This document shows, piece after piece, positions 5,286 to 64,000 of a DNA stretch of 64,000 bases (positions are counted from its first letter, which is position 1; the number at the start of each line of letters is the position of its first letter). Origin of the DNA: Bilabrum cf. latius. Its lineage: Eukaryota. The stretch is from assembly GCA_965178125.1 (NCBI GenBank), contig OZ237749.1, positions 1-64,000 on the forward strand, written 5' to 3'. The position numbers and the translations under genes are program-made. Under the pieces are notes generated by a model, which worked only from the letters and a program-made list of their open reading frames with translations, made no database searches and was not told the DNA's origin.

Positions 5286-6470
5286 TTACTTCCCTGAAAG
5301 AAACGAAACTGCACCAGGGATGCTCCTACACCTTTTCGATGGCGTCGCATCCCCAGCGAGCAATTTCCTTTTCTCCCCTCTCCTCCTTTTGGGCAACTCG
5401 ACGGGTGTACGCGATAGGCTCGTTCTCGCTGTAGCAGTCCGCTTAAGTGGCACAGACCTCTTAGACTTGTCTGCGCGCGCCAGTTGCATTAGACGCCCGA
5501 GAGCTGGTTCGATGCTGCTGCTAGCCAATCTGACCAAGCTGCGAGCTTCCGCTCCGGTCAGGTGAGCCTTCTGCTCGCATGCGTCACAGAGCGTTCGCAG
5601 ATGCAGTACTGCCTCTTGCCACGAGTATACTTGGGCTTGAGTCGGCATCTTCTGGCCGTGGACCTTGGACTAGCCCCGCCGTGCACGCCGGTGCTACTGG
5701 CTGGAGCCTGAGCCAACATTGCCTTTCGATTCCGATCTTGCACACCCAGAGGCAGATGATCTCAGGCATGAGCCCTTTTGAGTATTTGCAGTGTCGTCTT
5801 CAGCTGCAGTAGCACATGCCATCTTTTCGACGTGCTTCGACGAGCTTGGTGCGTGCTTGCCGGTTCCATGCAACGCCAACCCATTCTGTGGAGCCAGTTT
5901 CATCATGGCACGTCTGATTGCGTCGTCAGACTTCTCTTTAATACTATTGATAGCATAACGCAAGTGTCTTTGGCCTGTTTCCGCAAGCAAGAAGCTTGGG
6001 TCGACACGCAGCACTTTGCCGTCATCTGTCGCACAAATACGCTGCATTACACTATGAAGTGATGTACGCTATCGCGCAGATACATAGGCACCATCCTAAA
6101 AGATGCACCGCACGGTTTCAACCGATATGCCGCAAGCTGCGATACACAAGCCTCGGCGGATTGCGAGACTTTCCGTTGCGAAGTCTACAGGCTTCAATCC
6201 AAGCAATGCCCACGGTGATGCATGGTCTGACATATATTTTTCACACTGCCTGGCAGAAGAGAAACAAAATGCCAGCAAGCAAACAAAAAAATCTTGATGT
6301 TCGAGACCACTTGCAGTTTGAGATACTGTGTTCCGCCGTCGAGCGCGGCGCCGCACGCACCCCCCACTGGTGGCACTCGCCCCCCACGAGGGGGACGCGC
6401 ACAATATTCCGTTGAGTATTGCTTGCGCCAGAACCGGCCTAAAGATGTCTGACGAAACCTTGTGTTCCAT
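5286..6470 (-). CDS. Hypothetical protein, about 394 aa with TAG read as sense
   Basis: ORFs 6096-6470, 5694-6047 and 5286-5648 share one frame and are separated only by TAG (6096, 6069, 5694, 5670). It ends at TAA and has a basic PKRRRGEKRK stretch. No family recognised. Confidence 0.5.
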
Positions 6471-6694
6471 TGACGATGCATGTAAAGTCTTAGATGATAC
6501 ACGCTAGATGCAATCTATGCACAAAGTACTCAAAAGATTGCAGCGAGCAATGAATCGTCGAGCTCTGTTTTGGTAGCACGTTCCAGTGAGTTCTATGTGG
6601 AGTATATGGGCAGTATTGATTTGCTATCCGCCGCAGACAGCTCAATACATACTTATGTTGCATTGTTACGCAGATATCCGAAGAAAAATTAGAG

Positions 6695-9600
6695 ATGATC
6701 CGCACTTTCGATCCCCAGCAGCCGAATCCGCCAGCTGAAGTAAGGCAGAGCTACAGTTGGGATAATAGGAGTACATCTCAGCAGCAACCGCAGTATATTG
6801 AACTTCAGTTTATTATATCGCAGATGGATGGCATCGAAGTCGAAGAAATTTAGGAGTGCCTTCGAGAACTTGGAGTCTCAAGCGATGTCATCGAAAATGG
6901 CATGCTGGCCGATCTTCTCACGGTCTACGATACACCCAGCGCTGATGCAGAAATATTTCACAAACAATTAATTGACGACTTGATCAAGGAGTCAGATCTG
7001 CATACATACGTATCGCTGGTTGATTGCTGCTAGTACGCGCCAACTGGATATCTGCCTGCCCAAGCTGCTCTCGCTGCCCGAGCAGAGATGTCAGGAGCAC
7101 ACAGTGAGATGCGGGGATTCGATCTTCCTGAAACGGCTACTCGTGCACGATCGTCACGAGGCGCAAGCAGCCCCAGCAGTAGTTCTCGTGGTGCCAGCTA
7201 GGCCACTGGCAGCTCGCCAAGCCGCCGTCGACAGTCGTCAGGCGCCGCAAGCAGCCACAGCAGTAGTTCTCGTGGTGCCAGCTAGGCCACTGGCAGCTCG
7301 CCAAGCCGCCGTCGACAGTCGTCAGGCGCCGCAAGCAGCCCCAGCAGTAGTTCTCGTGGTGCCAGCTAGGCCACTGGCAGCTCGCCAAGCCGCCGTCGAC
7401 AGTCGTCAGGCGCCGCAAGCAGCCCCAGCAGTAGTTCTCGTGGTGCCAGCTAGGCCACTGGCAGCTCGCCAAGCCGCCGTCGACAGTCGTCAGGCGCCGC
7501 AAGCAGCCACAGCAGTAGTTCTCGTGGTGCCAGCTAGGCCACTGGCAGCTCGCCAAGCCGCCGTCGACAGTCGTCAGGCGCCGCAAGCAGCCCCAGCAGT
7601 AGTTCTCGTGGTGCCAGCTAGGCCACTGGCAGCTCGCCAAGCCGCCGTCGACAGTCGTCAGGCGCCGCAAGCAGCCCCAGCAGTAGTTCTCATGGTGCCA
7701 GCTAGGCCACTGGCAGCTCGCTCGATCAGATGTCCCAACCAGAAACGGAGTCTGGACCTCAACAGCACCTGTCATCCCCCCTGGACTTCTTGGCAGGCAT
7801 GTGCCTTGGGTTCGCTCCATTGCCCGCCGTCCGAAGGCAAGGATCTCGTGCCGCAGCAAGGAAGAAAGTCGCTGTCAAAGAGAGTCGAACATCCAGCTAG
7901 CCCGTCACTCCGAGTGCAAGCCGAGGCCTGTCAAGCTCGGCCTCTCCGCGAAGATCAATGGACAGCACAATTCCGGACCAGCCTGCGATATATAGAGCGT
8001 TCAAGTCTGCACCAGGTTCCAGAAACGTACCGCTGTCTTGTCACAGCGATTCTGCATTTGATTTAGATGGGTTCACTGTTCTTGGAGCTGTCGCAGACCT
8101 CAATGGATCCAGTGCAGACGAGACTTCGAACCACTTTCTGCCTCACACGTTGGCAAGCCCACTGGGGCTTGATGGATCGGACCATGCACTGCTGGACTGG
8201 ATCACAGATGGCGTTCTAGGTGTACATGACTCAGATTCGCTGCTTCCGTCGTATACCAGCTTGTCTCAATCACCCTCAACTGGCGTGGTAGTTCGCGCCC
8301 CGCACGCACAGCGGCCGCCTGCCGGCGGATCAATGCGCATATCATGGACAGCATTCCTTGATGACGGGGATGACGTTTTCAAAGACTAGCAAACTGCGAT
8401 GCTGTGGGCTGAGCGTCGTTGCGACCAAGAGCAGATTGATAGCTTACGATCCAAGGTGACCGATCTGCAGCAGAAGTGTCCGAATGGACTTGGTGGCTCA
8501 AGCATCCGGGTGTTGGCTGCCGGAGCCTTGTCTGATGTTACCAAGTATAGCAAACTAATTGAGTAGGAGTGCACCCGATAGTTCCATCGTGATGTCGACA
8601 AGGCTGCAAGGGAAGGGTGGGCTTCAGTGGTGCCGCATTCTGGAACCTTGTGGAGTAGGGCTGTCAGCACGCAAGCAGAAAACGCAAACGATCAATCGTC
8701 GAAATTGCCAACGCTTCGTATACTGCGCGGACTCGCTGCTGACATCCACGTTCAACTTTTCGATGTTGGTGCTGCTACGGTATCTATTCTTGTACCTAGT
8801 GGATTGCTTGATCTTTGCCGTGACCTGATAGACTCGTTCGAACCTCCGTCTCAGTCCTTGCAGCAAACGCTTGATACTGAGGGTGTTGTAGAAATGAGTA
8901 TGCATGAAGGCTTCTGGACCCAGGGCTCCCATGTGGATGTAATCCGAAGCTGTGTGCTGTACGTCTTCGGCTGCGGGCTCACGGCTGCTGCCAGCAGGCT
9001 CGACTGGCTAGGTCCAGAGCTAGTGGTACGTGTCCAACGTGGTGGAGGCCAAGCCGGTGGATACCATTCGTCGCTCGCACACGCTGGGAGTGGACCTGGT
9101 CCACAGACAAGTAGATTCTGGCCTGGCTCTCACACCCTGCACAGAAGCCCATCCCGGTTGCTTTCGTGCGCATTTCATTGGGTACGGTGGCTTGGCTACC
9201 CAGCCGTTGACTAGTTGAGTGACTCTGACTCTGATTCTGACGAGGCTCAGCAGAATGAAGGCGTGGGAATAAGCGGTGGTGCTGCTGCGCAGAGCGATTC
9301 AGACGACACCGACGTGGACGTGGATGAGGACGACGACTTCGCTAAGCAACGTGGCGTGGAGGATGATGAAGCATAGCACAGCAGCTCCTACGAGTGGTCT
9401 TTGAGTCACGACTCTTTACTTGATCATCTGCACTTAGTATCACACTACAACTGCTTCCTCATGATACTGCTGATGAGACAGATAGCCAGGTGCTCCGTGT
9501 TCTACGCCTAGCGAGTGGGCTGCAAAGCATGCAATCCTATGTCTCTCTTGCAACAGGCAGCACAGGGACAGCTTCGCAAAGCTCATGAAGACTTGGCTGC

Positions 9601-12600
9601 CCAGCAGGCAGAAGAAGAACGTGCTCGGGAGATCGCAATGGATGAGAGCGATGAGGAGTTTGCCAGAGGCCGCAGAGGTGAATGGTTTGGTCCAACAGGA
9701 GATGGCAAGCGATCGGCGTCAGGCGCTACAAACAGGAAGGTGAGCAGGAAAACACTGACACGCAGTGCTCGGGAAGAGCTGTACCGCGGCGCGGCGCGAG
9801 CACCTGCTTGGACTGGACGTCATCAACGCCGAGGTATGAGAGATCTCGCAGCCATAATTCATCCGTACGGACAGCTGTGGCCGCAACAGGATGCGGATAT
9901 GGCCATGTACTGCAGTTTTGGCGTAGGCTTTGAGGTGTGTGGTGAACGCTCAGTGTCAGTTGCTGTACCGAACCCAGCAACAGTTCAGTACATGCATAGC
10001 TGTCGGGATCAGTTGCTGCGAGGAGTCATACACGGAACACGGCTCGAACACGCACGGTATGCCGTGATGCAAGAGCGAATTCGTCCATATGCGGCGCTGG
10101 CGTCCGTTGGAGAGTACGCCGGAACCTTCCAAGGAATGCTTCCAGCTACGCTATCCTGGGGTGACGTGCTTTCCGTGCACCGACGTGTTTTAGCCGAGAA
10201 TGACACTGGCAACGACTACGGCATGCCTTCATTTATGTCACTTGGCTGCATGCTGTCATCTCAGCTGCATTTGTACCAGCCTGGAGCATTCCGAGCATTT
10301 CAGCCTAGTCCAGGGGCGCACGACTCTGCATATGACCAGTTTCGCCGACGAGTTCTCTCTAAGGTTCGCCACTTCGCTGAATCGGGTGCACATGCTCCAT
10401 CGACTTTGAGTTCGAGAACTGCAAGCATGATTCGAGCCTAGGCAGCTCTGGATGCACTGCCAACCCGCCGGCGGATATACCTTGGGCTGCAAACGGCATT
10501 CACTCAAAGCTATGCAAGGCTAACTGCAGGAATCCTTGGATCGACCAGGGGCGAGTTCGATGTACCCGCGTCAACCATGAGTCTGATGCTGGCCTCCGTA
10601 GTGCTACCAGCTGAACTGCAGTACGGACAGTTACGGAGTGAACATCGCGCCGACACTATCGAGCATTTGTCAGTGGCTCCATTCTCGCAATGCTTCGTGG
10701 AGGTCGTGAAGAAGACATCCATCATGAATCACTTGGAAATGCTCAGGTATACACTCCGTCGGGCACTTTGCAGAATCGAAAGACTGCTCGTAGCAGCTGT
10801 CTGTGGTGCAGACAGGATTCCCACGTATCAGCGATCGGCGATGTGGGCGCTAGCTGCATCGATGAGCAGATGCTGTATGGAAGGCTGCGTGGCTCTACGG
10901 ACAGATGCATGGTCTCAGGTTGTTGCAGAGCAAATTGCCGTAACGTGGCTTCCCGCTACTAGGCCAGTTCTTCGAAACTTAGGGCCTTCGACACTGGAGT
11001 GGTCCAGCGTCCGTGACTGTTTGCAATCTGCTAGCAGTATGCCTGAGCAGTCTAATGTAATGGCGGTTGCATCCGCCATCATTGATCAAATCGGAAATGC
11101 GGTGTAGTCAGTCAGGGCTGGGGGGTGCAACGGTACGTTCTTGAACTCGTGGACTGTGCTTGCCGTCTGTGAGGTTATGGTAACGTCTTGGAGCCTGTGT
11201 GCGTTGGCAGAAGGCTTGGGCATGACATGGCAGATCTCTCGGATCTCCGAGAGGTATGGTCTTTCTGGACTCGTATCAACGCAAGGTGACGAGCACTTCC
11301 AGTTGGGCATCAGCGGTGTGAACAACGGAATCACCGGCTTTCGTGCTATGGTACGGGCTGACGTGCAGGCTGACATTTTGTCTCGACTGCCTGAGCGGTC
11401 CAGGCTATTGTTGCACTTTGCCAAGTCTACAGACATGTCCCACGCTGTAGTCATGGAGCAGCAGCTACGGAAGCTTTACCTTGCGCAAATGCACCTGGCA
11501 AAGCTCCACCTTCGCAGTGGCACACGGAAAGGAATGCTAGCAAGGGGCAGCCTAGCTGTAGCACTGTACGGGCTGCTCCTATCTCGGCTCAGGTGCTCAA
11601 GGAGTGCAATACTAGTTGGCTTGCAGATGTGCATATCCAAGATTGCCTTCAGTCCCAGGCCAGATGCAGGCGCAATGTGGCGCGGCTCTAAGAACGCTGG
11701 GAATCTCAGGGGTGACTTGGCGACCACGACATCTGCTAGGGCCTCCAAGCTAGGCTATGCGTTGATAACAACGTTATCCTGGACCATGCAACGCAAGCTT
11801 GCTGCCGAGTCATCTGTCCGGACCTCGTACGTCGCTTCAATTCTTCGTGCTGTCGTAGGCACCAGGCAGAACGGACAGCCATCCCTCGCAGACGAGCAGT
11901 TTCGTCGTATGGTATCAGTGTGGCTTTTACCTGCGTGTGTGATTGGGTCTGCAGTATTGCTGCCCGATCGGTTGCAGCGGCCCCCTCTGCCTGGAACGAA
12001 GCGACCAAGGGGAGGCCAGCCGCCGATTGCACGATCTGGACTTTAGACAGTGCTCGACGTCTCGCCACCACCAAGAACCGCCCAGCCTGCCGTTACCATT
12101 GCCCAGCACGTGGAGTCTGTCGTGCTAGATCATTTCAAGTGGATGAACCCAGGCTTTGATTGTCCTCAAGTCTTCAGAGGGGCGCTGAACAGGTAGGATG
12201 GGTCACTGCGTCGTGTCATCGATGTAGGCTACTACGGCGCTGGTCTCTGCATTAACCTGCCCTGTAGTCCATCAGTAGTGCCTGCACTATCAGAAGCCCC
12301 GTACTACAAGGCAGCAGGCAAGGGGCTGGTACGCAGGTCACTAGCTCAAAGCTTGAAAGCTGTGGGAGATGTCCGATCCATGGTGGCCCGAGCACGTGCA
12401 GAAGCAGGAGAAGCAGGCGTGAGTGCCGACCAGAGGCACGAGCTTTGGCGTGCGTATCACATACCTCAATCGCAACACTGCAGCTAGGTTCTTCGGATGT
12501 ACACACGTGCTCGTCCTCTTGACGATGGCGACAGCATCCTGTCACAGGCATCCACCGCTACTTCTGCTCTTGAGCATAGCCTAGATTCGTTGGGACATAT

Positions 12601-13123
12601 TTGGCCCGGCCATGAGAGCGATGAGGAAGAAGGGCAATAGAAGCGATCAAGGCACATGCGGCAATCCGGCGAGCATGCGAGCTCGAGACCCGCAGAACGA
12701 ACGGAGGCCAACGCATTCAACCGAACTGCGATCGGCAGCAGGGCATCGGAACCATTGAGGCCTGCCTCGGCATCAGCATCCAGTGGGGCTGGCAGCGATG
12801 ATGATCCAATCGGTCGATTGCTGCAGATGCCTACCGACAAGGCTGGTAGTGACGGCCTTGCCGAGTTGCAGCCGCCGCTGGGAGCAGCCTCCAGCGCCAT
12901 CACGCAGCCGCCGACTTCAGCACTGTCACGACCTAGAGGAATTCGTGGTGACCAGAACATGGCGCCATCAGTGCCCGGCGCTGGATTGCGTGGTATGGGC
13001 CAGCGAGATATTTCACGGGCACGTGGCGAAATCGAGATCCTTCTTCTTGGCACCGCTCCACGGTGGGTACACATCCCAGCAATTGAGCAAGAAGGCTGGG
13101 GGTTTGATGAGAAATGGACATGA
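6695..13123 (+). CDS. Large hypothetical protein, about 2,140 aa with TAG read as sense; start uncertain
   Basis: ORFs at 7958, 8627, 9515, 10577, 11141, 12278 and 12656 are all in one frame. Manual translation of the gaps shows only TAG (about 22) and no TAA or TGA between 6620 and the TGA at 13121. It contains an S/R-rich repeat and an acidic tract at 9220-9370. Confidence 0.75.
7163..7720 (+). repeat. 84-bp coding tandem repeat, about 6.6 near-identical copies
   Basis: In the long frame the unit reads SSSSRGAS(TAG)ATGSSPSRRRQSSGAASS(P/H). Confidence 0.92.
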
Positions 13124-14224: not shown

Positions 14225-14700
14225 CCCAGCACTCAGTCCTTGAGTCGGGCGGGAGCGCGGGTGCGTGCTTCGAGGCAGCGCGTGCCCCCGGGGCGAGAAG
14301 GAGCAGGCCAATGACGAGGAGCAGCATCCCGGGACAGGTGTCTCTGTAGATCCGATCGTCGAGTGTGGAGGTGTGTGTGGCAACACGATGAACCTGATGT
14401 CCCAGATCCGCAATGAGGTGGGGCAGGCAGTGCATGGGGAGCGCAAGCTTCTCGTGCACGCGCTTCATGCCGGCTCGCTGCCATCGGCCGCTGACTTGAT
14501 CCCCGGGCTCGCGCACTTGTCGCGGCCCGTGCTGTCTCAGTCACGGACGGGCGAGCTGGATGGAGCACCTGCCCGACGGGGAGACAACCCCCTATTCTCG
14601 CGGGCGAAACACAGCAGGGCACACCTCCTTGGCAAACCCAATTTGCACGACGCGGTTTGGTCCAGACTCGCCGGGTGGGCGTCCATCCCGTGCAGCCCCC
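14225..14700 (+). repeat. Dispersed subtelomeric repeat, copy 1 (paralogous to 15498-15800 and weakly to 16118-16235)
   Basis: Shared blocks CCAGCACTCAGTCCTTGAGTCGGGCGGGA and CCGTGCTGTCTCAGTCACGGACGGGCGAGCTGGATGGAG...CCCCTATTCTCGCGGGCGAAACACAGCAGGGCACACCTCCTTGGCAAACCCAAT. Confidence 0.85.
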
Positions 14701-14976: not shown

Positions 14977-15171
14977 TAACCCTAACCCTAACCCTAACCC
15001 TAACCCTAACCCTAACCCTAACCCTAACCCTAACCCTAACCCTAACCCTAACCCTAACCCTAACCCTAACCCTAACCCTAACCCTAACCCTAACCCTAAC
15101 CCTAACCCTAACCCTAACCCTAACCCTAACCCTAACCCTAACCCTAACCCTAACCCTAACCCTAACCCTAA
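14977..15171 (+). repeat. Interstitial telomeric array (CCCTAA)n, about 32 units
   Basis: Perfect hexamer run in the same orientation as the terminal array. Confidence 0.96.
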
Positions 15172-15245
15172 ATATATATAATGTGCGGCGTTTTGTTTTT
15201 TGGTGAAAAATTGTGCGTGCCCCGATCCTAACATGACCCCCAGAT

Positions 15246-15300
15246 ACCCTAACCCTAACCCTAACCCTAACCCTAACCCTAACCCTAACCCTAACCCTAA
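15246..15300 (+). repeat. Second interstitial telomeric array, about 9 units
   Basis: Perfect CCCTAA run separated from the first by an AT-rich spacer of about 75 bp. Confidence 0.95.
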
Positions 15301-15488
15301 GGCGATGGATGGGTCCATGGTGCCTGTGCTGGGGCGCGCAGGCTGGATGTGCGGGCGACGGATGGGTCCATAGTGCCTGTGCTGGGGCGCGCAGGCTGGA
15401 TGTGTGGGCGATGGATGGGTCCATGGTGCCTGTGCTGGGGCGCGCAGGCTGGATGTGCGGGCGGCGGATGGGGTCATGGTGCCTGTGA
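15301..15488 (+). repeat. 53-bp tandem repeat, about 3.5 copies, homologous to the 54-bp telomere-associated repeat
   Basis: Unit GGCGATGGATGGGTCCATGGTGCCTGTGCTGGGGCGCGCAGGCTGGATGTGCG, placed directly after CCCTAA repeats as at 4956. Confidence 0.9.
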
Positions 15489-15497: not shown

Positions 15498-15800
15498 TCC
15501 AGCACTCAGTCCTTGAGTCGGGCGGGAATGCGGGAGCATGATTTGATTCGGCTCGATTTGAGGTAGCGCAAGCTCACGGGGGGAGAAGGAGCAGGCCAAT
15601 GGCTAGGAGCAGCATACCATTGACAAATGTCCGTGCTGTCTCAGTCACGGACGGGCGAGCTGGATGGAGTACCTGCCGATGGGGAGACAACCCCCTATTC
15701 TCGCGGGCGAAACACAGCAGGGCACACCTCCTTGGCAAACCCAATTAACACGATGCGGTTTGGTCCAGACACACCGGGTGGGCGTCCGGTCCGTGCAGCC
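15498..15800 (+). repeat. Dispersed subtelomeric repeat, copy 2 (internally deleted relative to copy 1)
   Basis: Matches 14225-14330 and 14527-14695. Confidence 0.85.
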
Positions 15801-16745
15801 GTCGAGTGCTCGTCGCTCGACGGCCCACGCCTCGGACGGAGCCCCCGTCGTGGCAGCCATTATTGTAAATAGAGATGGCACTGGCGTGTTCCTACTAATT
15901 GCAATTTAGCAGCCCAAGACCAAGTCAGGCCTGCCCAAGGTGCAACGAAGGCTGCTGCCAGGGGCACCCAGCGGCTGTGGCCCCTTGTGGGCATCCAAGC
16001 AGGCCATCAAGATGACCACCACCCGGCAGCGGTTGTCGGCCGATTGCACCAGCAAGGCCGACCTTGTGGATGCAGTGGCTTACAATACTTGGTTTGTGCC
16101 TGAGCGACTCATGGGTTTGCTTCATGCTGGATCGCTATCATCTGCCGTGGCTTGATCTCCGGGCTCATGCTCGCGCACTTGTTGCGGCACGGGCGTTTCT
16201 GGCACGAATGGACGAAGTGGGTGGAGCTCCTGACCTACTATGCTTAAGAATAGGAACTCAATGCAGCGGGTGGAAAGGCACTCAAGGAGGCTCCGGGAGA
16301 ATTGGTTTGTTGCGACCAATGATGACTAGTCGATGCCACGGTGACTGCGAGTGGCATTCGGCGGGTTCCGGTAAGGCAGGTACAGTGGCTTTGCCAAATG
16401 ACCACTCAAAAGGTAAAAGAAGTAATTTCTGGTGAAATTGATCTTGGTTGGTACCCTAAATACGGCTGAGGATATCCAACACGCCCTTTGCGCCAGGAGA
16501 GTAGGGCGAGGTGGAGCTCACGAACAGATAGCACTGGGACACATTTCTGCCCTCCTGTTGACCGGAATCGGCAGTCTTCTTCAGCAAGCGGTCGCAATAG
16601 CGTTTCCCAAGTATCACTTTGACTTTTGCTTGGATCACGCTACGGCGGATCGGCCCAGAGCTAAGGTAGATTTCCCAGTCATCAGCGTGCCACCGACACG
16701 TAAGCATAGGCAGTGTGAGGATCAACCGGTGGTTGCAACCTCGGG

Positions 16746-18764: not shown

Positions 18765-19159
18765 AGGGACCTATACGCTGGGCAAGGGGGCGGCGCAGTA
18801 TGGCCGGGGCTGAAGGTGTGAGACATAGCTGGCAAGGCTGTCGGGCGGGGATTGCTGACGACTAGTCTCCGCCGCTCCCACTCGCCCTGTCACGGATCAA
18901 TATGCTGGGCACGTGTTTGATGTTTGCACCATATATCTTCGGAGTAGGATTCGATCGACACAAATCCACACCGCACCATCTAGCGGTCACGCACGAGTGC
19001 AGCGCGACTTGCTGCTGCCTCGGTGGCCTCCTCAGCCGTGTACTTCATAGATGGCTCCGCTGCCACCGCCGGCCGAACTATTCCTCCCCCTTCACCCATG
19101 TCACCCTGCCCACGATTGATAAACAGGACCTGCCTTTCCTCCAGTATCACTGCTACCAT

Positions 19160-49106: not shown

Positions 49107-50034
49107 TGCGCATATAAGTAGTGGACGCCCTCACGGAGTGCTACATACTCATGCAACGGGCTTTGAGACCAGTGCGTGCGAGAAAACCGACCTGAACAGA
49201 TAGTTCGTTGCTCGGAATCATGGAATCAAACCAGCCCAAGCACCACACAGTTCAAGCATTGGACATGAATTAATTCAACATGAGGGCGCATACGACGTGT
49301 CACAGCTAAGCAGATGCAGCATGAGAGCGTTTCCTCAAACCGGCAGTCGATGTATTCTGCCAAGAACGGCGCGTGCTGGAAGCCAAGCAATCGCCTTCTC
49401 ACCGGTGTCAGCGTCGTCATACTTTGGTTCAGGCTCTGGAGTAGAGACTGGGCTGGTCCCCGACCGCCCAACGCCCTCCTACATCGCAGAGCAAGCCGCC
49501 ATGATGTCGAAAGTAGAAATAGAGAGTTGCGAGTTGACCAAAACTCGACAATGAAGTAGCCTAGGAAGAACTCAGCAGTTCATTCAGGATGAGGAGAGGA
49601 TGAGGAAGAATTTGAAGGGGAAGGGAGGAAGCTTGGGAGGAGCAGTGGCTGGGGAGGCCACGGGAAAGGCTGAGCCACTCATCGCTTCGTTGGAAGATCT
49701 GGTTTACGGCATTTATAACGTAATATTAAATGCCAAGCTGGCTGTCGGAAAAGACAGTTCAAAATCGTGCAAGTTATTCTCTACTAGCCAATCTACTTTT
49801 TTGAATGTATAAATCATTGCGATGTGTCGGGAATCCATATGAACCGATGCACACGCTTGCTCATGAGCAAAAGTAGTCGCCGATCGAATGACGACGCACG
49901 CAACAATGTCTGGTTTGTGGACGAGGATCAGCCACACGTCGAAATCGTGATGTCCCCGTGCTTGTTAGGCATGACTAGACAAAAAAGGATCGATGACCAC
50001 AAATATTTATTGCTATATAAGTATCATCGTCAAC

Positions 50035-53000: not shown

Positions 53001-56000
53001 CGGACACGACGTAGTACACGTCGGGAACGGTGGCAGGCGATGCACCAGGGCCGGCACGTGCCAGCAGTCCCTGAGACAGCCGCTCGTACTACTCCCCGGG
53101 CCGACCCCCAGTGGCTAGCAGCCAGTGCGCCCCCGGCTCGGGGTCTCTCCTGGCCCTCGTGGCCGCTTCCAGGGACAGCGGAGTGCCCGACAAGACGGAC
53201 CGCCTGGTGCCGTTGCATGCGTCTGCAGTGTACTGCCAAGCCACGTCTGGCCTGCCCTCCGCTGCAAAGTACACCAGCTCGCGCCCCTGCCCGTCCGTGT
53301 GCGCCACCAGGAAGGCGGGGTCCGACGACTCTGGGCCCGGCAGCAGATCCTCCACGATGGCCGTGCCCTGGTCCGTGCCATCCGTGACCCAGAGCTCTCG
53401 CCCCGCTGCCTCCGTCTCCAGCACGGCCATGGCACGGGCACCCCCTTCGATGCTCGTCAGCCACTGGGGGCGAGAGGACAGCTGGCCCTCCCGCGCGTCG
53501 GACACCAGCGCCAGTCTCCAGGCTTCGCCGGCCACGCCGTCCCTCACCGACTGTGGCGCTGGTCCTAGCAGGTCTTCTCGCACCAGTGGGGCGTCCACTC
53601 GGGAGAAGAAGAGCTCAACGCCGGCGCCAGACCAGGGCAGCGGGTTCTGGTTCCCACCCGCGAGCGACATGTCCGAAGCAGCCACCCCCGCAGCACAAGC
53701 GGCCCGCACACCTCCGAGCAACGTCTCGGTGCCAGCCACGACCCGCAGCACGGCCCGCTCTTCCGTCTCTGCCGCGAGGATGACTGGAGGGTCGTTCACA
53801 GGGGCCACCGTCAGGCGGACTCTGGCGGTCGCACCCAGGCCCCGGGCGTGTACCTCCTCCACCGACACCAAGAGAGCGTCCTCACCGCTCCAGTCCGCGG
53901 CAGGTTCGTACAGGATCCTCCTCAGGGCAACCGCTGCAGCATCCAAGGACGCCTCGAAGTGAATCGCAGCGTCCCGGATGCCATCGCCGCCGCCTGGGAG
54001 GTACGTCAGCTGCACGGGACCATCCCTTGTGCCGCTTCGCCGCAGCTCCAGGGCTTCTGTTTCGTTCCATCGGCGCAGCACACCAAGCAGTGCCTGCCCG
54101 AAGACGGGAGCACCCAGCGTCACTGCCCCGTGGGACGAGGTGATTGTTACCCGCACCAAGTCGCTGCCACGCAGGTCCACATCTCTCAGCGCCAGTCCTT
54201 GGATCGCCGCGACGCCATCTTCCCTCAAAGCCACGAGGAGGGCACCGCCTGCAGTCTCGCGAACAGAGAGACCGTCGTAGTGCCAGCTCGCCAGTTGAGT
54301 CGGATCCAGCTGGGCCGCGCCGGGCACGTCGACAACCGGCCCGTCCGCGCGGCCTGACACCCGCACGGTGGCCCTTGTGCTTGCCTCGGACTCGGCGCCT
54401 TCTCCGTCGCTCACATCTCGCACCACCACCGTCACGGTCGGCTCTGACTCAGTACCGGACAGCAGCGCCGAATCCAGGTTGGGGTCAGGCAGGAACTACA
54501 CCTCCTCGATCCAGCGATCCGTCTCAGCCGCACTGCCCCGGAACACGACGGAGCTCGAGAATCCGTTCATCGCTTGGAACGCAGAGGCATTCTGGGCGAC
54601 ACCAGCGGGTGTGCTGATGCTCCCGTGGTCCCTGCCCTTGGTCGACCTCAGCCCGCCCATGGTGGCCGAGACCACTGTCTCGTAGGCACCCTCCACACCG
54701 ACCTACTCGCGGACAGCGGCTGCGTGCGGGGGCACTGGGTCCGTGCCTTGGCCTGCGTATACATCAGCGTCCGCCACCCGCACCAGCAAGCCCATCTGCC
54801 GCAGGGTCTGCACGGAGTCCTCAGCCGTCCGCACCAGCACCTGTGCCGCGATGGGCTGACCTGCCCGTGCTCCTGGTTGCGCGCTATCAGTGAGCACGAC
54901 AGGGTCGGGCACTGGCCGCACTACCAACGGGATTGTCGTTGAAAGCCATGCTGGGACAGGATCAGCTGCTCCACTGCCGGTCTCAATGGATACCGTCACG
55001 TTGTCGCGGCCGAACCAGTGCGCCCACGGCTCATAGCTCACCTGCGCCAAGAAAGCAGCCATGGCGGGACCTTCCCCGCGAGCTACCAGCACGCGAGAAC
55101 TCGCCAGACCCCCGGTGCCAGTTGGACTTCCACCTGAGGTGACGTCAACCCCGACGGGGAACCGAGGGTACTGCAGCTCGCCCCTGGCGACGGACAGGGT
55201 GGCACCGTACTGCTTGCCCCGCACCGCGTTGCCTATCTCCATGGCAGGCAGGCGGAACGCACCGTCTTCAGGCAAGTGTGCCGCATCCACCCGCACCAGC
55301 TCTCGGCACCTCCGACTGGACACGTCGTCAGCATTGCATGGCCGGTCCACGTAGTGCCCGCCCTGCACAGTGAGGAACTCTCGCTGGTGCCTCCCCGGGC
55401 CATCCACCAGAGGCACACGCAGCAGCGATGCCGCTGGCCCTCGCTCTACTGCTTCGTCAAAGGCAGCTGAGAGTCCTAGGCGAGCCTCACCCGCCAGAGG
55501 GGAAGTAAGGCGTCCGTTGAGCATGCGCACAGACAGGCGCTCGAGCTGGGCAGAGACGCTGACTACCGGCCCATTCAGGCACACGCGCGTGTCTTCGCTT
55601 CCGCCACCGCACTACAGCACAACATCTGTCCCGGCCGCGTCGACGTTCAGCGCAAAGCTCCCACTTGAGTCCAGCAGGGACAGGTTGGCAGTCACGCGCC
55701 CGGTTCCTGGGGCAGCGCCCTCCTGCAGCAGCCCCAGGCCAGTCAGCTCCACCGGCTCATCTGCAGTCAGGAACGGCAGGCCATCAGGCAGCACCCAACG
55801 CAGCTGCGCCTCCTCCACCTGGCCCTGCACGGCGATGTCGAGTGTCGCAACCAGGCCCTCAGCCCCCGGAGAGCGCCCGGTGGCTGGGCGCGAGGAGTGC
55901 TTGGTCACCCGCACGTGCACCGTGTCTGACCCTGGCCAGGCCGTCCGCTCGACCAGGTACTACAAAGAGTGCAGTGCGGCGTTGACATCCTCTAGAGTTC

Positions 56001-59000
56001 CCGATAGCACCAAGTCCACGGGACCCGCTGCATCCACCGGGGACGTCATCGCGCCCTCGTGCGGGATCAGCTGCTGCACCCGGCCGTGCGCCGCTGCCAC
56101 GGTCGCAACATACAGGTCGGGTAGGTTCTCAGATCCAAACTGCAAGTCATAGTCTTCAACAACCACAGACTGGAGGCTGATTCCATGCGCGCGAGAGGGC
56201 AGCACAACCGGAGTGGTGCCAGCGTACCGGACGGTATGCTGTGACACGGCGGCCTGCACCTGCACGCCGACTGTCCGCTTGGTGGTCAGTGGGTGTGCCG
56301 CTGCCGCTTCCTCAAACCCAGTCACTGCTCGCTTCAGGTCCTCAAGCACCGGGGCGCGACTGGCGTCCAAGAAGACCAGCTCCGACCCGAACGCGTCGTC
56401 GTACGAGGCATTCAGGGTGTCCAGCCCCCGTAGCCCGAAAGTGCCCATATCCCTTACTACAATGCTGAGCTGAGCCATACCTCGAGCGGCAGTGTTGAAG
56501 CCGCGCGGAAAGCCAAGCGTAGTCAAATCAATGGCCTAATTGAGGCCAACCAGCGGACCACGCAGCACCACCTCAGAGGCACTGACGCTGCCGCTGGACG
56601 AGGCGCACTTCGCTGAGCCAGTCGATGCATGGATTGACGAGACCGCGGATGCAGTAGTACAGGGCACTGTCACAGTACCCCCGTCGGTGACAGAGAGCAC
56701 CACTTCCTTCTCCTATGCCAGGATGCTGCCGTTCGACGATCGCACCAGCTGATCGAGCTCGGGCGTCTCGTCCGCGTCTTGGATGGACAGCAGCACGCCG
56801 ATGTCGAGTGCAGTGTCTTCTGCCATCTATATGGGCGCGGCGCCCCTGTCATCGTCGGACCCTCGCACTCTTGCCACGCCCACGGTCGGGGCGTCGTTCA
56901 TGGGCACCACCAGCACGGGGATGTGCAGCAGGTCCGCCTGAGGGAAGAGCACCGCTGGCTGTCTGGCGATCGACCTGAGCCTCCGAGCAAGGGAAGGTCC
57001 CGCCTGAGCGACCACGCGCTGGAACTCGACCGAAGACTGGTCCAGAGGTCCCCCACTGACGAGGCCCTCTATGGCGACTTGCACGTCCATGGGCACGGTT
57101 GGGTCGGTCGCAAGTCTTGCCGCCCAGATCCTGGCGGCTTCAAGTGCCACAGCATCTGCCAGCTCGTCGCCCTACAAAGCAGTCTGGCCAGAAATCCCGC
57201 CTACGCGCACCGACTCGAAGGCCGTTTGTGGGAGCGGCACGACAGGCCGAGTTGCGTTGGACCCGGTGAGGGCATTCTTGGCAGTCCTGCTTCCGCCGTT
57301 GCCCAGATCGCTAGCGAACACTTCCACCAGATCTCGGCCGAAATAGTTCGATCTCGGGTGATACACCATGCCCAGGAGGGCGGCTCGGGCGGCAGCTGCG
57401 TCCGCCCTGAATCTGATCCTCTGGCCCCTGAGGTAGGAGGAGCCGTTGCGAGCTGCGCTAGCTGGCTCTAGTATCTGCTACAGTCGAGCAAAGGTTGCTC
57501 GCCCAAGCTCCAGCTGGCCCTCCTGGACACGAATCTCGACTTCTAGCAGGCCACTAGGTACTACGCTGGGCTCCACGAACCTGGGCTACTGGAGCTACTG
57601 GGCTCGTTCGTCAGTGGAGCTAGCCAGCAGAGAAACAAACTCGTCTCGTGTCACAGGGCCAAGCACCACGCGTTCTGGACCGGCAGATGCCGTGGACAGG
57701 CCGCTGGCAGCGCCGCCAGCGAGCAGAGGACTAAGCTCGGAAGCGTCGACATCCCGCACGCTCACTGCAATGGGCACGGCTGTGTCTTCTGCCACCACTA
57801 GCGGACGCACTGCCCGCACCGCATCGGAGAGACCGTCTCCGACCAGAGCACCTTCCTCTCTTACTGCGCCAGGGACATCCAGCACAGGGGGATCGTTCAC
57901 CGGAAGCACGCGCACGCGCAGGACCTAGCCCGCCATCGGGCCCCCGGCGGTGGTGGAGGCTGAGAAGGCCGCCAGCCAGCCCATTGTGTCCACAAGCACC
58001 CCATGCAGCGAGTCCGCAGTGACTCCACCCTGCGCTGAGCGCGCTGCCTCCAGCAGTACATCAAGTGCGCCAGTACCCTACGGACCTGCGGCGAACGCTG
58101 CGATTGCCGATCGAGAGGCTGCTGCCAGCGACGCCTGTGCTGCATATCCCGCGGATGCCGAAGCAGACGCAGCGTCCACGGCCTCTGGCAGTCTATCCGA
58201 CCCATCGTCAGTATCAGGGCCACTTCCATCTATAAAGGCAGGGGAGCTGCCGTTGACCAGCACAGCCCATATGCCCTCGAGCCTAGAGTCGGCCGCCCCC
58301 CCTTCACTTGCGAATAGGATGACACGATCCAGTGAGCCCGTGTCCTAGACAGCCCCGGTGCTGGACTCAGAGTTGAAATTCTGACTGGGCCGGTACACAA
58401 TCTCCTCAATGGCCTGGTTCACGTCCACGAGCGGGCCTTGGATCGCGCACGCCCGCACCCTCTGGCAATCACCGGCTGACAGGTCCAGTCCCGGGACCAT
58501 AGTAGGCAGCGACAGCGTCCCGAATCGCGCGGCCAGCCGCACGGTCACGTTTCCGCCAGCTTCATCGTTTACTTGGGTGCCAGCGATGCGGTAGTCAGCG
58601 TCTTCCAGCACCACGAGTGGGCCGGGGGGCACCACAAGGACTGGGGCCTCGTTCCTTGCCTGCACTTGCACCGGCACGGCACGCCTAGCGACAAACCCTC
58701 TGCCCAGTTCAAACGCTAGGGCTTCCTGCAGCTGACGGAGCCCTGCATCGGCCGACGGTAGTGATGACCCGAAGTCAGCGAGAGTCAGGTTGAGCGAGAG
58801 TATGCCAGCCACACCGGAGTCAGGAATCAGCACAGCCTCCTGTAGAGCAGCGTTGATCTGCGACTGCTTGCCAATGAGGGCCAGGTAGCGAGAGCCTAGG
58901 AAGGAAGGCTCTCCCAGAGCCTCAAATGTAGGTGCTGTGCCGCCGACAGCAACCGCCTCGGCAAGTGATGATGCTGACCGGAAATGTGCGCCAAGACCGC

Positions 59001-62000
59001 TGGTCCCAGCAGCTGAGCCAAGGCTCGAGTTGAGACTCCCTCCTTCGTCAGTGAACAGTGGGACAGAACTCCCATCGGCCGACACGTTTGAAAAAACTGT
59101 CACTAGGCAGCCGTCAGTGCGCGGCATGCGAATGCGCGCTCCCCCCACCGCCTATGCAACCAACAAGAGGTAGCTGTCCGGCACGCCCACAGCGGTGCCT
59201 GCCACCTGCTGCTTGTCAGCGTCCTGCACAGAGAGCTCATCGAGAGATATGGGCGTGGCTTCGATACCCTCAAGCAGACCAGGAGCAATGATCACTGGGG
59301 GGTCGTTCTGGCTGGCGACCTTAATGGCAGCAGAGGCGCAGCTCGTGCCGCCCTAGTCGCACGAAATAGACTGGCTGACGGGTTGCGACCAAATAGCTGG
59401 CGAAAGGCCCTCAAGGCCCGTCGATACCTGCGTGCGGTTCACACGTACATTCGAGGGCGACTGAGTTACGTAGCCAGTGCCAGAGGCGACTTGCGTTCCG
59501 CTCCCGACACTGTTGCTAGGTGTGCCCAACCGCGCGGTCACGCTGTCCCAGCCGTGGAAGTGTGCATCAGGCACGTACTCGATACGGGGCTGGGGACCCA
59601 GCAGATCCCGCAGTTTCGCTGCCGCACCCACAAGCAGCAGCTCACGGGGACTGTCTGGTATGCCAAGCACCGCACCACCGGTGGCACCAGCTCCGTCCTG
59701 CACGGTGCGGGTCACGCTGGGTGCCCTGATAGCACCGTGCTCGCACGACAGTCTCAGCTCCAGCACCTCGCTGCTATCCAGTCCGGACTCGGCTATGGAC
59801 AGACCACCAAGAAGCAGGACGGTGTCCTCCACGCCCTGCAGGACCGTTCCACCATCCTGCACCGCGCCACGGGTTTCGATCGACCACGCTAGCTATGGAA
59901 GGCCTGCCCTAGTGGGTGGCACCACGTCCAATGCGAAGCTGGCACTGGCGGTCAGAGAGGGGGCAGTCGCACCGATACGACCGCCAAAGAAGGGGCTAGC
60001 CACGGACAGAGTGCTATTCGAAGGCACACTACCAGTCAAGCCCATGTCAGACGCGACAAGCCGCACGACCAGTCGACCCACCTCTCTTGAAGCAGGTCGA
60101 ACCACCAAACGGCGAATAGCATCGTTCAGGTCCGCTGGCAGGCCTGCCAGTGTGAATGCAGGCCCCACGATCGTGTTACCCTGCACGCTAGACCTCGGAT
60201 CTGCAGCGAGTAGCCATCGACTGCCCCCAGCCGTGTGCTGGCCTTCAAGCAGCAGCTGCGAACCTTGCTCCGCGGGCACCAGCTCGTGGCTTGAAACAGA
60301 GGCGCCTGATGTCTCCGGTTGGAGCTGATCGCCATTGACAGCGACCCGCAGCCTGCCAGACGAGTCCCGTAGGCTAGCCCACACCGTGAAGGTGAATCCT
60401 CCACAGAGGGTCCGTGGCCCGCGCCTCACTGCCACCTGCACGTGCGACCCCAAGGCCTCCTGCGATCGAGCGTGGTCTTGTAACAATTCCTGGATGGACG
60501 CCGGCTCCATGGACTCAGACACCTCCAAGGCGCCAATGGTCAATCCTCCCGCCATGAGGTCGAAGGAGCCACTCAGCGTCTCTGGCTTTTGCACCGTCCG
60601 GATGAGGACATCCACGTCCTCGCCGGCAATAGTAGTAGCATCGCTGTCTACAACCGCACCCGAGAAATCGTGCGGGGCACCTCGGAACGTAACCGCCCAG
60701 CTGGCTCCCTGCAGCCCAATTCCATACCGCATGGACAGAGGCAAAGCATCGTCGACGTGGACCATGCGCCTTGCCTCCACCCGAATGGCGCCAATTTCCG
60801 ATTTGAGATGACTCCGTGGGATGCGGCCACTCAGCTCTTCCAGCGCATCCTGTAGCACCACCTCCATTGACGTGCCCTGCGGCATGTCGGGATTCTGGTC
60901 AGAGGCGGGTCCCGGCAAGCTGGGGTCGATTGCCCTGGTACCAGCGCTCTCTTCAATTCCAGCCATGTACCCAACATCGTCTCGGAACATGCCGGCCGTG
61001 GAAACGGTGGCTCGAAGGGCGCCTCTGAGCCGGGCCAATGGATCTGACGGGTCCGATAGGTTCGCCAAAGGGGGACCAGCCACCGTGATGATCTGCACCA
61101 GATCCACAGGCACGGCGTCAAGACTTACGTCAACGACGTATGCCTGCCCCGATCCACCCCGCACGACCTACACGCCAGCTTCGTATCCCAACGCCTGTGC
61201 TTGATCTGCCTATAGCTAGGATTCGATCTGCAGACCGGCTCGAAGCAGCGTGGGATACAACAGAGTCACTTGCCACTGCGCGCCACCCACCTGCATCCGA
61301 TCAAAGCGCTGCGACCGCGTGACGATCACCCTGTCCACGCCTTCCATGCCCTCGAGAAGGTCCCTGACCACCGTGGCACTCGAGTTGGGGTGCACCCAAT
61401 CAGAGCGAGAGAGTCCGAGGGCGAAACGAAAGGGAGCATCGGCGACACTGGCGCCACCGCGGGCCGCAGACACTGCTGGACCAGCGACCTCTGCCTCGCT
61501 GCTGTTCCCCACCTGCACGCCCACCGGGACAGCCGTCATCAACGGAAGGTCATGGGGGGCGTGCAAGAAAGTGACGCGGTAGGTGTACCCGTGGAGTGGT
61601 CCGCCCGAGGTCCGACTAGAGTGAGACCGAGATACGAGCACGTCGATCCCGCCGAACTCGTCGCTCCAATCAACAGGGTGGACGGCTCCAGTACCAGGCC
61701 TCAGATAGCCAGCATCATCTCCCGTCAGGCACGGCAGCGCCATGAGGGCGTCCCGCACGCTCCGCTGGCCGTAGGGCGGGGACCTGGTGTCTACTGGAGC
61801 GTTCACTTGCAGCAGTTCCGTCTCACATGCCTGTCCGCCATAGGCCGAGGAGTCCACTCGCAGCTTGAAGTGCCCCGACAGCCGCACACTGTCGACAGAT
61901 GGGTCTTCCACGGTCTCCCGTGCACCCACGAATATCTCCTGAATTGGCGCCCTCTCAACTGCATTCAAACTAGAGCTAACCCCGGCATGGAGCACGGTCG

Positions 62001-64000
62001 CAGTTGCCTCGCTGAACAACTCTGCATCCAGCTGCACGGTGCTACCGGGGAGACGAGAGGCATCTGCGTCTGACAGGCCCAGCTGGTGCACCTCTGGTCC
62101 AGCTGCGTGCGCTGCAGACGGGCAGGATGACGCTTTGGTATCCGGGTAGGCATCGAGCAGCCGTGCCTGCAGAAGGCCAGAAGCAGACGGGACAAGTGCA
62201 GGGCTGCAGGGCTAGCCAAGCTGAGGTGCCGTGTTGGCTGTTGTCACGCGCAGCTCCACGGCCACCGAAGACACTTGCCACCCTGGCCCTGGGCCCTTTC
62301 TTGACCATGCCTCTCGCACCTGAGAGGCAGTTGGGTCCTTGAGCAAATGTGCTGATACCGTTAGGTAGTCCGTCCCTGTGAATGTCGGCAGGCTGGCGTA
62401 CGTAGTCTGTGCCAGTGCAAGGTTCACCTCGGTGAGCGTGCCCGCAATGGCCTTCCGCGAGGCAGCAAGTCCTCCCGGCTAGCACCCAGGGCTCCAGTCC
62501 AGCTACCCGAAGGCCGAATGCCCGTGCTGCCCCGAGCAGTTCGAGAAGGAAATCTCCGCAAACTCGCTCTCGAGGACAACAAACAGAACATGCTAGCTCT
62601 GCAACTACCCAGGGTACGATAGTTGGAGCCGCGTGTCTTCATCGCGGTAGTTGAACTCGATTGGTCTGCCGAGAGTTACTTGCCTCCGCTCGGGAGCCTC
62701 GAAGCGCACGGCATCGTTGACCTGTGATAGTGCGACAAGCACATCCAGTGCAGTCGGCACCTACTGCGGATTGGGCCCACTCACCGACACGCGGATCACG
62801 TCGTCCTCTGCCTCGTCAGGACCTTGCGCGTAGCCCACACGGAAACTGCCCGATCCAGCTAGTAGCTCCTGCAGCACGGACAGGCTTGCTCTTAAACTGA
62901 GTCGATGATCTTCTAGCGTGATAGCATTCATACCGGCTGCATGGCTCACTGAAACCCCAGCAGCCTAGTCCAGCAACAGTACGTTTCCTCGACTGGCAGT
63001 CAAGTCCAAGTCAAGCATGGCTCCTCCTGATGCTCCTGCATCTGCCCACTCTAGCTAGATCGCCGGTAACATGCCCACTGAGTCTTCTTGCATGGTCAAT
63101 GACGCAGTGCTGTCGTTAGAAAACTGCAGAGAAGGGGCGTCCGGCAGCTGAGTCACGTTTAGGACAACTGCCGTACTAACATCGCCAGCCTCCTGCACGT
63201 ATGTACACACATCAGCTGAGACACCACTAGCAACAAGAAGCTCTGCAGATATGCGGACCAGCCCAGCGTAGTTCTGCGAGGGTGTCCACGCCATGGCAGC
63301 CAGCCATGCATTTGCGCACTTGCTCGTCCCTTTCATGTCCAGGACGTGCGCGCTCCCTCCCTCGCAGGAAGCCCACTCGGTGGCTCCCTCTGGAAGACAG
63401 CCCTCCTCGAAGGAGCCCACGAGCGACAGTGGACCCTCTTGCCCCCTTGCCACCGGGAGGAACTGCCCGGGCGAAATCGCCCTTGCCAGCACCCTCACGG
63501 TAACAGCCTCGAGTTGCCTCAAGCCAGACAACTCAAATAACGCACGTGCGCTCGACACCGCGAGCGAGCGATCTACGGTGGCCAAATCAACAGCGGACGA
63601 GTCGAGCACGACGGTGCGGTCCTCAGGCACACCTATGACTGGGACTCCGGGCCATGGGAGCGACTCGTTCACGTCAATTGTCAGGCGCAAAGCTCGATCA
63701 TTTCTTCGGGAGTTCACCAAATCCAGTATGACAGAGACAGACCGGGGTGTAGGGACTTGCTCCAAGCCGGGCACTTGTGTAGTGCGGTCGCCTCCACCCA
63801 GATCAAGTAAAAGTAAGGAACTTAAAACAGCTGTGGCTGCATCAGCGTACCCGCAGTTGCCTAGGTCAGATAGCACGACCGAGAGCTGGGCGTCATCCAG
63901 AATCGCATCATCTTCACATGAGACAGCGCACCTGGGCAGCATCGAATTGAGAGACTCTAGGGTGCCTCGCAGAACACCTCCGCCAGCTGCTGGCTCAATG
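50035..64000 (-). CDS. Giant extracellular-type protein with cadherin/Ig-like (VNDxP) repeats and ELWxxDGT repeats, more than 4,650 aa; 5' end outside the window
   Basis: About 17 minus-strand ORFs share one frame separated only by TAG (about 32 counted), ending at TGA 50035. Motifs VNDPP/NDAP/RNEAP, Y.P.....G.D, RELW(R/V/S)(T/S)DG(T/S) x5 and YDCPSG. Confidence 0.88.

Follow-up and report, generated by a model that had tools for sequence, protein, structure and literature searches.

How the nuclear genome of Bilabrum cf. latius reads the codon UAG is the question raised by the first 64,000 nucleotides of one of its contigs (GenBank assembly GCA_965178125.1, contig OZ237749.1, forward strand; hereafter the window). 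Under the standard genetic code, the eukaryotic region of the window is broken into short frames. Reading through TAG gives 13 gene-sized frames between positions 5286 and 63999. A first-pass annotation of this DNA had proposed that UAG encodes Gln here, while UAA and UGA remain stops. The analysis in this study showed that UAG is a sense codon in this nuclear genome. We further consider it probable that the code is of the NCBI table 15 type, in which UAG would be sense, most likely for Gln, and UAA and UGA would be the stops.

The 13 frames comprise 14,793 codons, with 94 in-frame TAG, no internal TAA and no internal TGA. In the same stretches, 210 TAG, 81 TAA and 518 TGA were counted in the +1 and +2 frames together, which corresponds to about 105, 40 and 259 per frame. 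TAG is therefore as common in frame as out of frame, whereas TAA and TGA are excluded. TAG was found in 11 of the 13 large frames, the exceptions being those of a ubiquitin-activating E1 and a PX-domain protein, and accounts for 0.64% of the codons. A further 12 TAG are contributed by five smaller frames (the two pieces of a TPR/prefoldin gene, CCDC53, a HAD-like frame and a bZIP exon). Four of the 13 frames end in TAA (5286, 18762, 19160 and 27937) and nine in TGA. These counts, together with the absence of frameshifts from the full-length frames, bear out the claim that in-frame TAG occurs inside intact conserved domains with neither internal TAA or TGA nor frameshifts. The proposed gene ends in TGA or TAA were also found, the TAA at 27937 being additional to the three already listed. 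The 14-kb open frame with about 32 TAG proved to be a reverse-strand frame of 4654 codons with 32 TAG (50035-63999), and the positions 18036, 31982, 32312 and 56536 are all TAG codons in the contexts described for them.

Since the frames were delimited by TAA and TGA, their lack of internal TAA and TGA could be regarded as circular. The frames, however, span whole domain architectures. The GH20 profile is covered from position 1 to 347 of 348, the E1 is full length, and the CFAP251-like protein aligns to the C-terminus of its homologs. If TAA or TGA were sense codons, truncated frames would have been left. The completeness of the frames relative to their families thus breaks the circularity. 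TAG lies within the spans matched to Pfam or to solved structures in the major-facilitator (MFS) transporter, deoxynucleoside kinase (dNK), M8 peptidase, GH20 and CFAP251 proteins. The Pfam families found were Nodulin-like/NFD4_C, dNK, E1 domains, DHHC, Peptidase_M8, WD40, PX, PAS/LOV, GH20, Myb, TPR, prefoldin and CCDC53, and the WD40 protein matched solved CFAP251 chains with an E-value of 2.7e-78. A search of the PDB gave no match for the M8 protein, CCDC53 or a cupin protein of the related contig L001 described below. Among the domains named in the first-pass annotation, GH20, Peptidase_M8, Nodulin-like/MFS, Myb, TPR and CCDC53 were thus recovered with Pfam and CFAP251 with solved structures, while the HAD assignment was not, no Pfam family being found in that frame.

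The TAG codons are also present in material that appears to derive from RNA. Twenty-three public sequencing runs contain part of the window, and contigs of four of them, from four studies (X1, X5, X6 and X8), were compared with the window over positions 16700-36699. No differing letter, insertion or deletion was found. The X5 and X6 contigs skip four segments that are kept by the X1 contigs. Three of these are bounded by CT..AC (20778-20867, 90 nt; 21003-21120, 118 nt; 25491-25778, 288 nt), and the fourth, bounded by GT..AG, is located just upstream of the CFAP251 main exon (31769-31858, 90 nt). The depth of X5 between genes varies from about 1 to 250. Because of the spliced contigs without the four introns and the gene-to-gene range of depth in X5, we read X5 and X6 as RNA-derived. 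It should be mentioned against this reading that the label given to X5 by software is "RNA? (probably DNA)" and that no run is recorded as RNA, the RNA origin being inferred from splicing. Had the TAG sites been due to error or editing, CAG would be expected at these sites in transcripts. Of the 26 TAG codons in the compared region, 18 were covered unchanged by X5 and 13 by X6, as counted on the listed contig pieces and not on raw reads. All nine TAG of the M8 gene were covered by RNA-derived contigs, and in the dNK gene such a contig spans 19070-20777 with no differing letter. Assembly error and editing of the U-to-C style are therefore ruled out at those sites. The genes are not free of introns, since four short GT..AG introns were obtained from the transcript contigs and one more was read from the sequence (40880-41075).

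UAA and UGA, on the other hand, behave as the only terminators in the window, in agreement with the proposal that they remain stops. About 40 TAA per frame are found off frame, and none among the 14,793 codons in frame. The dNK frame ends in TAA eight residues past the end of the dNK profile. The genes for the DHHC palmitoyltransferase and the M8 peptidase share one reading frame with three TAA between them, so that TAA as a sense codon would fuse the two. The X6 contigs for these genes are separate, with depths of 4.7 and 15.1, respectively.

The same trait was found in related lineages. A metagenome scan with the E1 sequence yielded a contig of 12,347 bp (L001) and another (L002) that is 99.9% identical to part of it. 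The E1 of L001 is 78% identical to that of the window. L001 has five frames, in which TAG was counted 24 times in frame and TAA and TGA never internally; they end in TAA once and in TGA four times. Protein fragments of close relatives were found for E1 (P0016, 98% identity), CFAP251 (P0001 and P0377, 97%), the giant protein encoded at 50035-63999 (P0286 to P0288, 89-92%) and the tail of the M8 peptidase (P0217 and P0375, 83%). More distant M8 fragments come in pairs, P0142 and P0147 on one contig and P0240 and P0384 on another. Fragments of the closer relatives break at window TAG 928, and the genes of all these relatives are split in the databases just as gene calling under the standard code would split them. 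Judging from these sequences, in-frame UAG is a trait shared by at least three related lineages. None of the 76 pattern matches of a metagenome scan with M8, and none of the 16 of a genome-contig scan with E1, was confirmed. The protein search with CFAP251 contained only two true relatives among 15 matches, as WD40 repeats dominated the result.

In the comparison with these relatives, the surrounding identity of 83-97% would predict far fewer changes at TAG sites than were seen. The replacements at TAG sites (CAG, GAG and TCG) are all single AT-to-GC steps, which fits a codon that is disfavoured in a GC-rich genome and undergoes fast neutral turnover. UAG indeed seems to be a disfavoured codon, as it is absent from the E1 and PX genes, in which the GC content at third codon positions (GC3) is high, and turns over quickly between close relatives. 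We also noted that the share of TAG tends to fall with rising GC3, and that the E1 gene has the highest depth of transcript contigs.

An excess of TAG was observed near the ends of genes. Three of the 13 frames carry TAG within their last 10 codons, with four such codons (CFAP251 1227 and 1229, MFS 665 and M8 1153) against about 0.8 expected. We considered whether C-terminal TAG codons are fossil or still-active stops, and rejected this idea because the tails downstream are conserved in relatives that lack those TAG. The 30 residues following TAG 4624 of the giant protein are identical in P0286, and the sequence GAGGT is kept after the CFAP251 TAG pair in P0001. The conservation of these tails as coding sequence indicates that the C-terminal TAG codons are read through.

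Which amino acid UAG encodes was then analyzed on the basis of aligned residues. In the E1 of L001, both TAG align with CAG of the window in contexts that are otherwise identical (KEDD_MA and GVQL_SMAAVFGG), for which the chance probability is (31/1135)^2. Among the M8 fragments, P0240, P0378 and P0379 end just before the window CAG at M8-392, in the motif GERGQP, where Q is also present in P0136 and P0137; P0142 ends just before the window CAG at M8-302. In the more distant relatives, TAG or a frame break thus aligns with CAG of the window in four of four cases, and with GAG in none. In the window itself, TAG 41 of CFAP251 corresponds to Q in four of five homologs, to R in one and to E in none, and TAG 151 to Q in the single homolog that aligns there. 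TAG 252 of dNK aligns with a Q of human dCK. In the giant protein, Q is the counterpart of TAG 1369 in P0287 and of TAG 3168 in one homolog. When TAG was read as Q, K, E or S, the NFD4_C profile gave 49.8, 48.4, 47.3 and 46.6 bits, respectively. Overall, Q is the partner at nine of about 25 informative sites, including all four in the more distant relatives, while E is found at four and S at three, all of them in the closest relatives. Leu was found at one deep column (dNK 329) and as a single aligned residue at M8-886.

Several observations weigh against Gln. TAG 955 and TAG 979 of M8 are both E in P0217 and P0375, which are about 83% identical to the window protein. TAG 4624 of the giant protein is S in P0286, and the C-terminal TAG pair of CFAP251 corresponds to S and a gap in P0001 and P0377. 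Moreover, P0217 and P0375 end just before a GAG of the window at M8 1049, and P0287 does so at residue 1530 of the giant protein; the end of P0217 lies inside a contig of 9408 nt and is therefore an internal break. In the closest relatives, TAG is accordingly paired with Glu codons four times and with a Gln codon once, the reverse of what is predicted if CAG and TAG are synonymous. Deep columns carried little information for the most part. Among 150 representatives of M8, column 139 is A/S/T, column 421 is A/V/E/K, and column 468 consists of S28 P27 A20 T10 Q8 N8 L7 E6; the residue is N at GH20-260, L at dNK-329, and D, Q, P or T at CFAP251-193. Re-scoring of 10 proteins under four readings of TAG (Q, E, S or K) gave differences of at most 4 bits, and the Pfam bits summed over seven families did not discriminate (Q 689.4, K 690.6, E 686.7, S 682.1). 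A tRNA search gave no hit in the window, L001 or L002, and the window contains no eRF1 gene. Columns 3637, 3718 and 3785 of the giant protein are variable among its ELWxxDGT homologs. In addition, the internal paralog pair that had been cited for Gln, GPLVGLN(TAG)AID and GPLVDVNQAIE, is real, while its column varies among other modules. Of the original assignment of UAG to Gln, the sense codon is established and Gln is backed by CFAP251 41 and 151, dNK 252, giant 1369 and the four CAG pairings, with E, E, S and S in the closest relatives standing against it. Cases in conserved contexts count more heavily in our weighting. On these alignments Gln is the most likely meaning; we would give about two thirds of the weight to Gln, about one sixth to Glu and about one tenth to an unsettled or mixed meaning.

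Some alternatives concern the status of the stop codons themselves. It is extremely improbable that TAG is not translated as sense and reflects sequencing or assembly errors, pseudogenes or mRNA editing to CAG. The only fact in its favour is the chimeric left end of the contig (see below), which shows that the assembly is not flawless. In contrast, contigs of four studies agree with the window letter by letter, among them spliced RNA-derived contigs that cover 18 and 13 TAG, the full-length frames are free of TAA, TGA and frameshifts, and the relatives keep both the genes and the trait. Another alternative is an ordinary code in which UAA and UAG (UAR) both mean Gln (table 6 type). Coupled reassignment of UAA and UAG is the common pattern (PMC5304391; PMC11687900; sources are cited here and below on the basis of partial texts). 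Sense UAA might then merely be too rare to appear in a GC-rich window, and GC-rich genes do disfavour A-ending codons (CAA:CAG, 138:453). At that ratio, however, 106 TAG should be accompanied by about 30 in-frame TAA, and none occurs in about 16,900 codons. TAA also ends one of the five L001 frames besides four of the 13 in the window, and its use as sense would merge the DHHC and M8 genes. Although the case for UAA as a stop draws on as few as 13 to 18 frames, we regard a UAR = Gln code as very unlikely.

Other alternatives concern the meaning of the codon. UAG might encode glutamate through a tRNA-Glu(CUA), at least in the lineage of the window, with UAA and UGA as stops. The E at M8-955 and M8-979 and the frames that end just before GAG would be explained in this way, two profiles score slightly better with E than with Q (TPR_2, 38.5 versus 37.4; WD40, 103.2 versus 98.6), and there is a precedent for UAG = Glu in a ciliate (PMC11687900). 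Nevertheless, P0217 and P0375 are sister sequences, so that their two E residues should be counted once. Exchanges between E and Q are easy, and of the codons one step away from TAG, GAG is the most frequent here (638 GAG versus 453 CAG). Q also beats E in the NFD4_C, dNK, M8 and CCDC53 profiles by 2.5, 0.9, 0.4 and 0.4 bits, respectively. Taken with the distant TAG-using relatives, which pair with CAG and never with GAG, and with the Q at columns 41 and 151 of CFAP251, these facts make the glutamate reading rather unlikely, although it is a serious competitor. A related idea is that a whole clade of GC-rich stramenopile flagellates has a sense UAG of non-uniform meaning, with Gln in the more distant members, while the lineage of the window would use Glu or a mixture of Gln and Glu. 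This clade would include at least four lineages (that of the window strain, those of two close relatives, that of L001 and another one with M8 fragments). We consider this idea doubtful. If true, it would mean that a reassignment has been caught while changing or settling its amino acid in a high-GC genome, to which models of codon capture by AT pressure would not be applicable. Finally, UAG may have no single fixed meaning, whether as a near-cognate mixture, a residue that varies within the clade, or a codon that is sense internally yet terminates near mRNA ends. The mixed partners Q, E and S, the turnover of TAG sites beyond what the surrounding identity predicts, the excess in the last 10 codons and the lack of TAG in the best-expressed gene, E1, would be in line with this. 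The conserved tails after the C-terminal TAG, the efficient decoding that a codon at 0.64% in 11 of 13 genes needs, and the single AT-to-GC steps of the replacements, as in neutral turnover, argue against it, and we judge it quite unlikely.

The table 15 type of code could be explained as follows. From position 3802 on, the window is best read as the end of a nuclear chromosome of a eukaryote whose translation system reads UAG as sense. A tRNA with the anticodon CUA, derived from tRNA-Gln(CUG), would decode UAG only and leave UAA unread. The release factor eRF1 would have lost its recognition of UAG, or have it weakened.

The host is probably a stramenopile flagellate with a GC-rich, intron-poor genome, as indicated by the gene content. 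The gene at 40539-42609 (+ strand; 4 TAG; stop TGA) consists of an exon with the bZIP basic region, ending at 40879, and an exon with the zipper and a LOV domain (41076-42609). The GT..AG intron at 40880-41075, a splice read from the sequence, joins NRENARRSR to MRKRLMVE, followed by PAS/LOV at residues 195-290. The 11 best distinct PDB sequences for the LOV domain are all aureochrome LOV (158-165 bits), the next one scores 141, and phototropin at most 129. By its predicted domain order, with the bZIP basic region and zipper N-terminal to LOV, this gene is of aureochrome architecture. Aureochromes are described as unique to stramenopiles, including some heterotrophic lineages, in the available parts of PMC13737086 and PMC10967249. 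The best named match of the E1 is a bicosoecid, and the presence of CFAP251 implies a flagellum. A Protein Atlas search with the E1 gave no usable taxonomy, and a search with Rfam had no match in the window, so that it contains no rRNA. The earlier suggestion of a probable stramenopile flagellate is thus strengthened by the aureochrome-type gene and CFAP251, with the placement depending on that single marker rather than on a phylogeny.

The left end of the contig has a different origin. Bases 1-3801 have a GC content of 43% and match an internal part of a chromosome of a Croceimicrobium sp. metagenome-assembled genome with 100% identity and without a mismatch in 3801 nt. The identity stops exactly at 3801, where telomere repeats begin, and cuts a gene for a DNA-alkylation-repair protein; past the end of the match the bacterial record continues with other sequence. 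The telomere array (ACCCTA/CCCTAA; 3802-4954) has a period of 6, with 192.2 copies and 100% matches, and is directly followed by 54-bp subtelomeric repeats (4955-5190). Its orientation is that of a left chromosome end, from which the eukaryotic sequence extends rightward from 3802. The bacterial piece is therefore read as a chimera, most likely an assembly or read chimera of a co-cultured bacterium and the protist chromosome end. To the right of the telomere, the sequence is eukaryotic with 55-70% GC, and the subtelomeric repeats give way to tightly packed genes. No convincing gene was found between 13.1 and 16.7 kb. This interval contains a 125-nt duplicate (14573-14697 and 15676-15800) and interstitial telomere-like arrays, (TAACCC)32 at 14977-15171 and (ACCCTA)9 at 15246-15300. 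Behind the interstitial array are 53-bp repeats that are related to the terminal 54-bp repeats and have the same orientation, about 10 kb inward of the end. The region at 14977-15487 has the appearance of a subtelomere that was duplicated or of a chromosome end of earlier times.

The other genes of the window are as follows. Two frames near the telomere belong to no known family, one of 415 amino acids (5286-6533, - strand; 5 TAG; stop TAA) and one of 2142 (6695-13123, + strand; 22 TAG; stop TGA). The latter contains an 84-bp (28-residue) tandem repeat of 6.8 copies at 7151-7721, and seven of its 22 TAG sit at one shared position of the repeats. Since TAG is at the same place in every copy, the expansion of the repeat is later than the origin of this TAG. 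The Nodulin-like/NFD4_C transporter of the major-facilitator type (672 amino acids; 16746-18764, + strand; stop TAA) has 5 TAG, including that in NNIG(TAG)M at 18036. It is followed by the dNK gene (530 amino acids; 19160-20752, - strand; 2 TAG; stop TAA), in which a phosphomevalonate-kinase-like domain at the N-terminus (residues 24-115) is combined in an unusual fusion with the dNK domain (residues 286-522). The E1 (1135 amino acids; 22123-25530, - strand; no TAG; GC3 0.86; stop TGA) is divergent, has no FCCH domain and shares at most 34% identity with any named E1. From these comparisons it appears to be a divergent paralog common to a few protist entries.

The DHHC palmitoyltransferase (528 amino acids; 26353-27939; 4 TAG; stop TAA), the leishmanolysin-like M8 peptidase (1159 amino acids; 28174-31653; 9 TAG; stop TGA) and the CFAP251-like ciliary WD40 protein (main exon of 1234 amino acids; 31862-35566; 6 TAG; stop TGA) are all encoded on the + strand. 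On the - strand follow the PX-domain protein (571 amino acids; 35754-37469; no TAG; GC3 0.76; stop TGA), two frames with TPR and prefoldin-like matches (37891-38589 and 38593-38856; 5 TAG) and the frame for CCDC53, a subunit of the WASH complex (39700-40152; 4 TAG). The TPR and prefoldin-like frames probably belong to the same gene, interrupted between 38589 and 38593 by an intron or a change of frame. Beyond the aureochrome-type gene, the end of a frame at 42901-43386 (- strand) resembles the first part of an Sm/LSm domain (E 2.7e-4 for a weak match to LSM), which suggests a small spliced gene for an Sm protein beside the GH20 gene. The GH20 beta-hexosaminidase (563 amino acids; 43315-45006; 1 TAG) and a Myb-domain protein (667 amino acids; 45974-47977; 6 TAG) are on the + strand and end in TGA. 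The frame earlier called HAD-like (216 amino acids; 48483-49130, - strand) has 1 TAG. The giant frame on the - strand, with stop TGA, runs off the window and therefore encodes at least 4654 amino acids. No Pfam family was found in its product, and a self-BLAST revealed no repeat within it at E <= 1e-3. In its C-terminal part it is similar to bacterial "ELWxxDGT repeat protein" entries, with at most 40% identity over about 6% of the query, and it has NDPPV/NEAPV module boundaries typical of bacterial adhesin-like repeats. It is possible that the product is an extracellular protein which this eukaryote obtained from bacteria.

Few changes of the nuclear code are known in which UAG and UAA have been separated. 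The listed cases belong to a fornicate, a rhizarian, a green alga and several ciliates (PMC11687900), and each new independent case tests ideas on the capture of stop codons. No stramenopile with a reassigned nuclear UAG was found by full-text literature searches, which did not extend to supplements and subscription journals, nor in term look-ups in the accessible parts of 10.1101/2024.02.03.578753, 10.64898/2026.03.27.714854, PMC11412368 and PMC12614181. The present case would therefore be the first found in stramenopiles. The proposal of a new independent code is consistent with this result as far as the lineage is concerned, whereas the type of code is a known one; we appear to be dealing with a known code type in an apparently new lineage. 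A genome with 55-70% GC is hard to reconcile with a loss of the codon driven by AT pressure. Since several related lineages of graded distance and both DNA and RNA data are already available, it should be possible to work out in which order tRNA gain, eRF1 change and spread of UAG took place. There is also a practical consequence. Gene callers that use the standard code break up genes in these organisms, which can be seen from the database entries found in this study, and proteomes, metabolic reconstructions and phylogenomic matrices made from such data would be wrong.

Among known systems, changes of UAG only are rare, as the first-pass annotation had stated with Iotanema, a rhizarian and some ciliates as examples, in agreement with the available text of PMC11687900. 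According to this source, UAG means Gln in Iotanema, Protocruzia tuzeti, Hartmannula and Trochilia, Leu in a rhizarian and in TARA ciliates, and Ser in Scotinosphaera; in one ciliate, an uncultured oligohymenophorean, UAG is Glu with UAA as Lys. The window is most similar to the first group, Iotanema spirale (a fornicate) and the ciliates P. tuzeti, Hartmannula sinica and Trochilia petrani, in that UAG is sense, UAA is a stop and Gln is best supported (PMC11687900; PMC5304391, both in part). It differs from them in its probable stramenopile host, its TTAGGG-type telomeres and its GC content. UGA is the commonest stop here (nine of 13), while UAA is preferred in phyllopharyngeans as far as the source text goes. 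Compared with those codes, Gln is here a still unconfirmed assignment derived from sequence comparison, and no suppressor tRNA was found in the window, L001 or L002.

The codes with Leu (the rhizarian exLh and TARA phyllopharyngeans), Ser (Scotinosphaera) and Glu (the oligohymenophorean) share with the window the uncoupling of UAG from UAA, and Glu and Ser are also found at some TAG sites of the window in close relatives. Leu, however, is without support here, Ser gives the lowest Pfam score among the four residues tried, and UAA is not sense as it is in the ciliate with UAG = Glu. As in the table 6 codes of many ciliates, ulvophytes, Hexamita, Streblomastix and Amoeboaphelidium, a stop would have been taken over by Gln, whereas in the window there is no in-frame UAA and UAA ends genes. 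The ambiguous stop/sense codes of Condylostoma, karyorelicts and Blastocrithidia likewise have a former stop codon inside genes. Unlike in those organisms, one codon is affected here, two dedicated stops are kept, and no frame needs UAG as a terminator.

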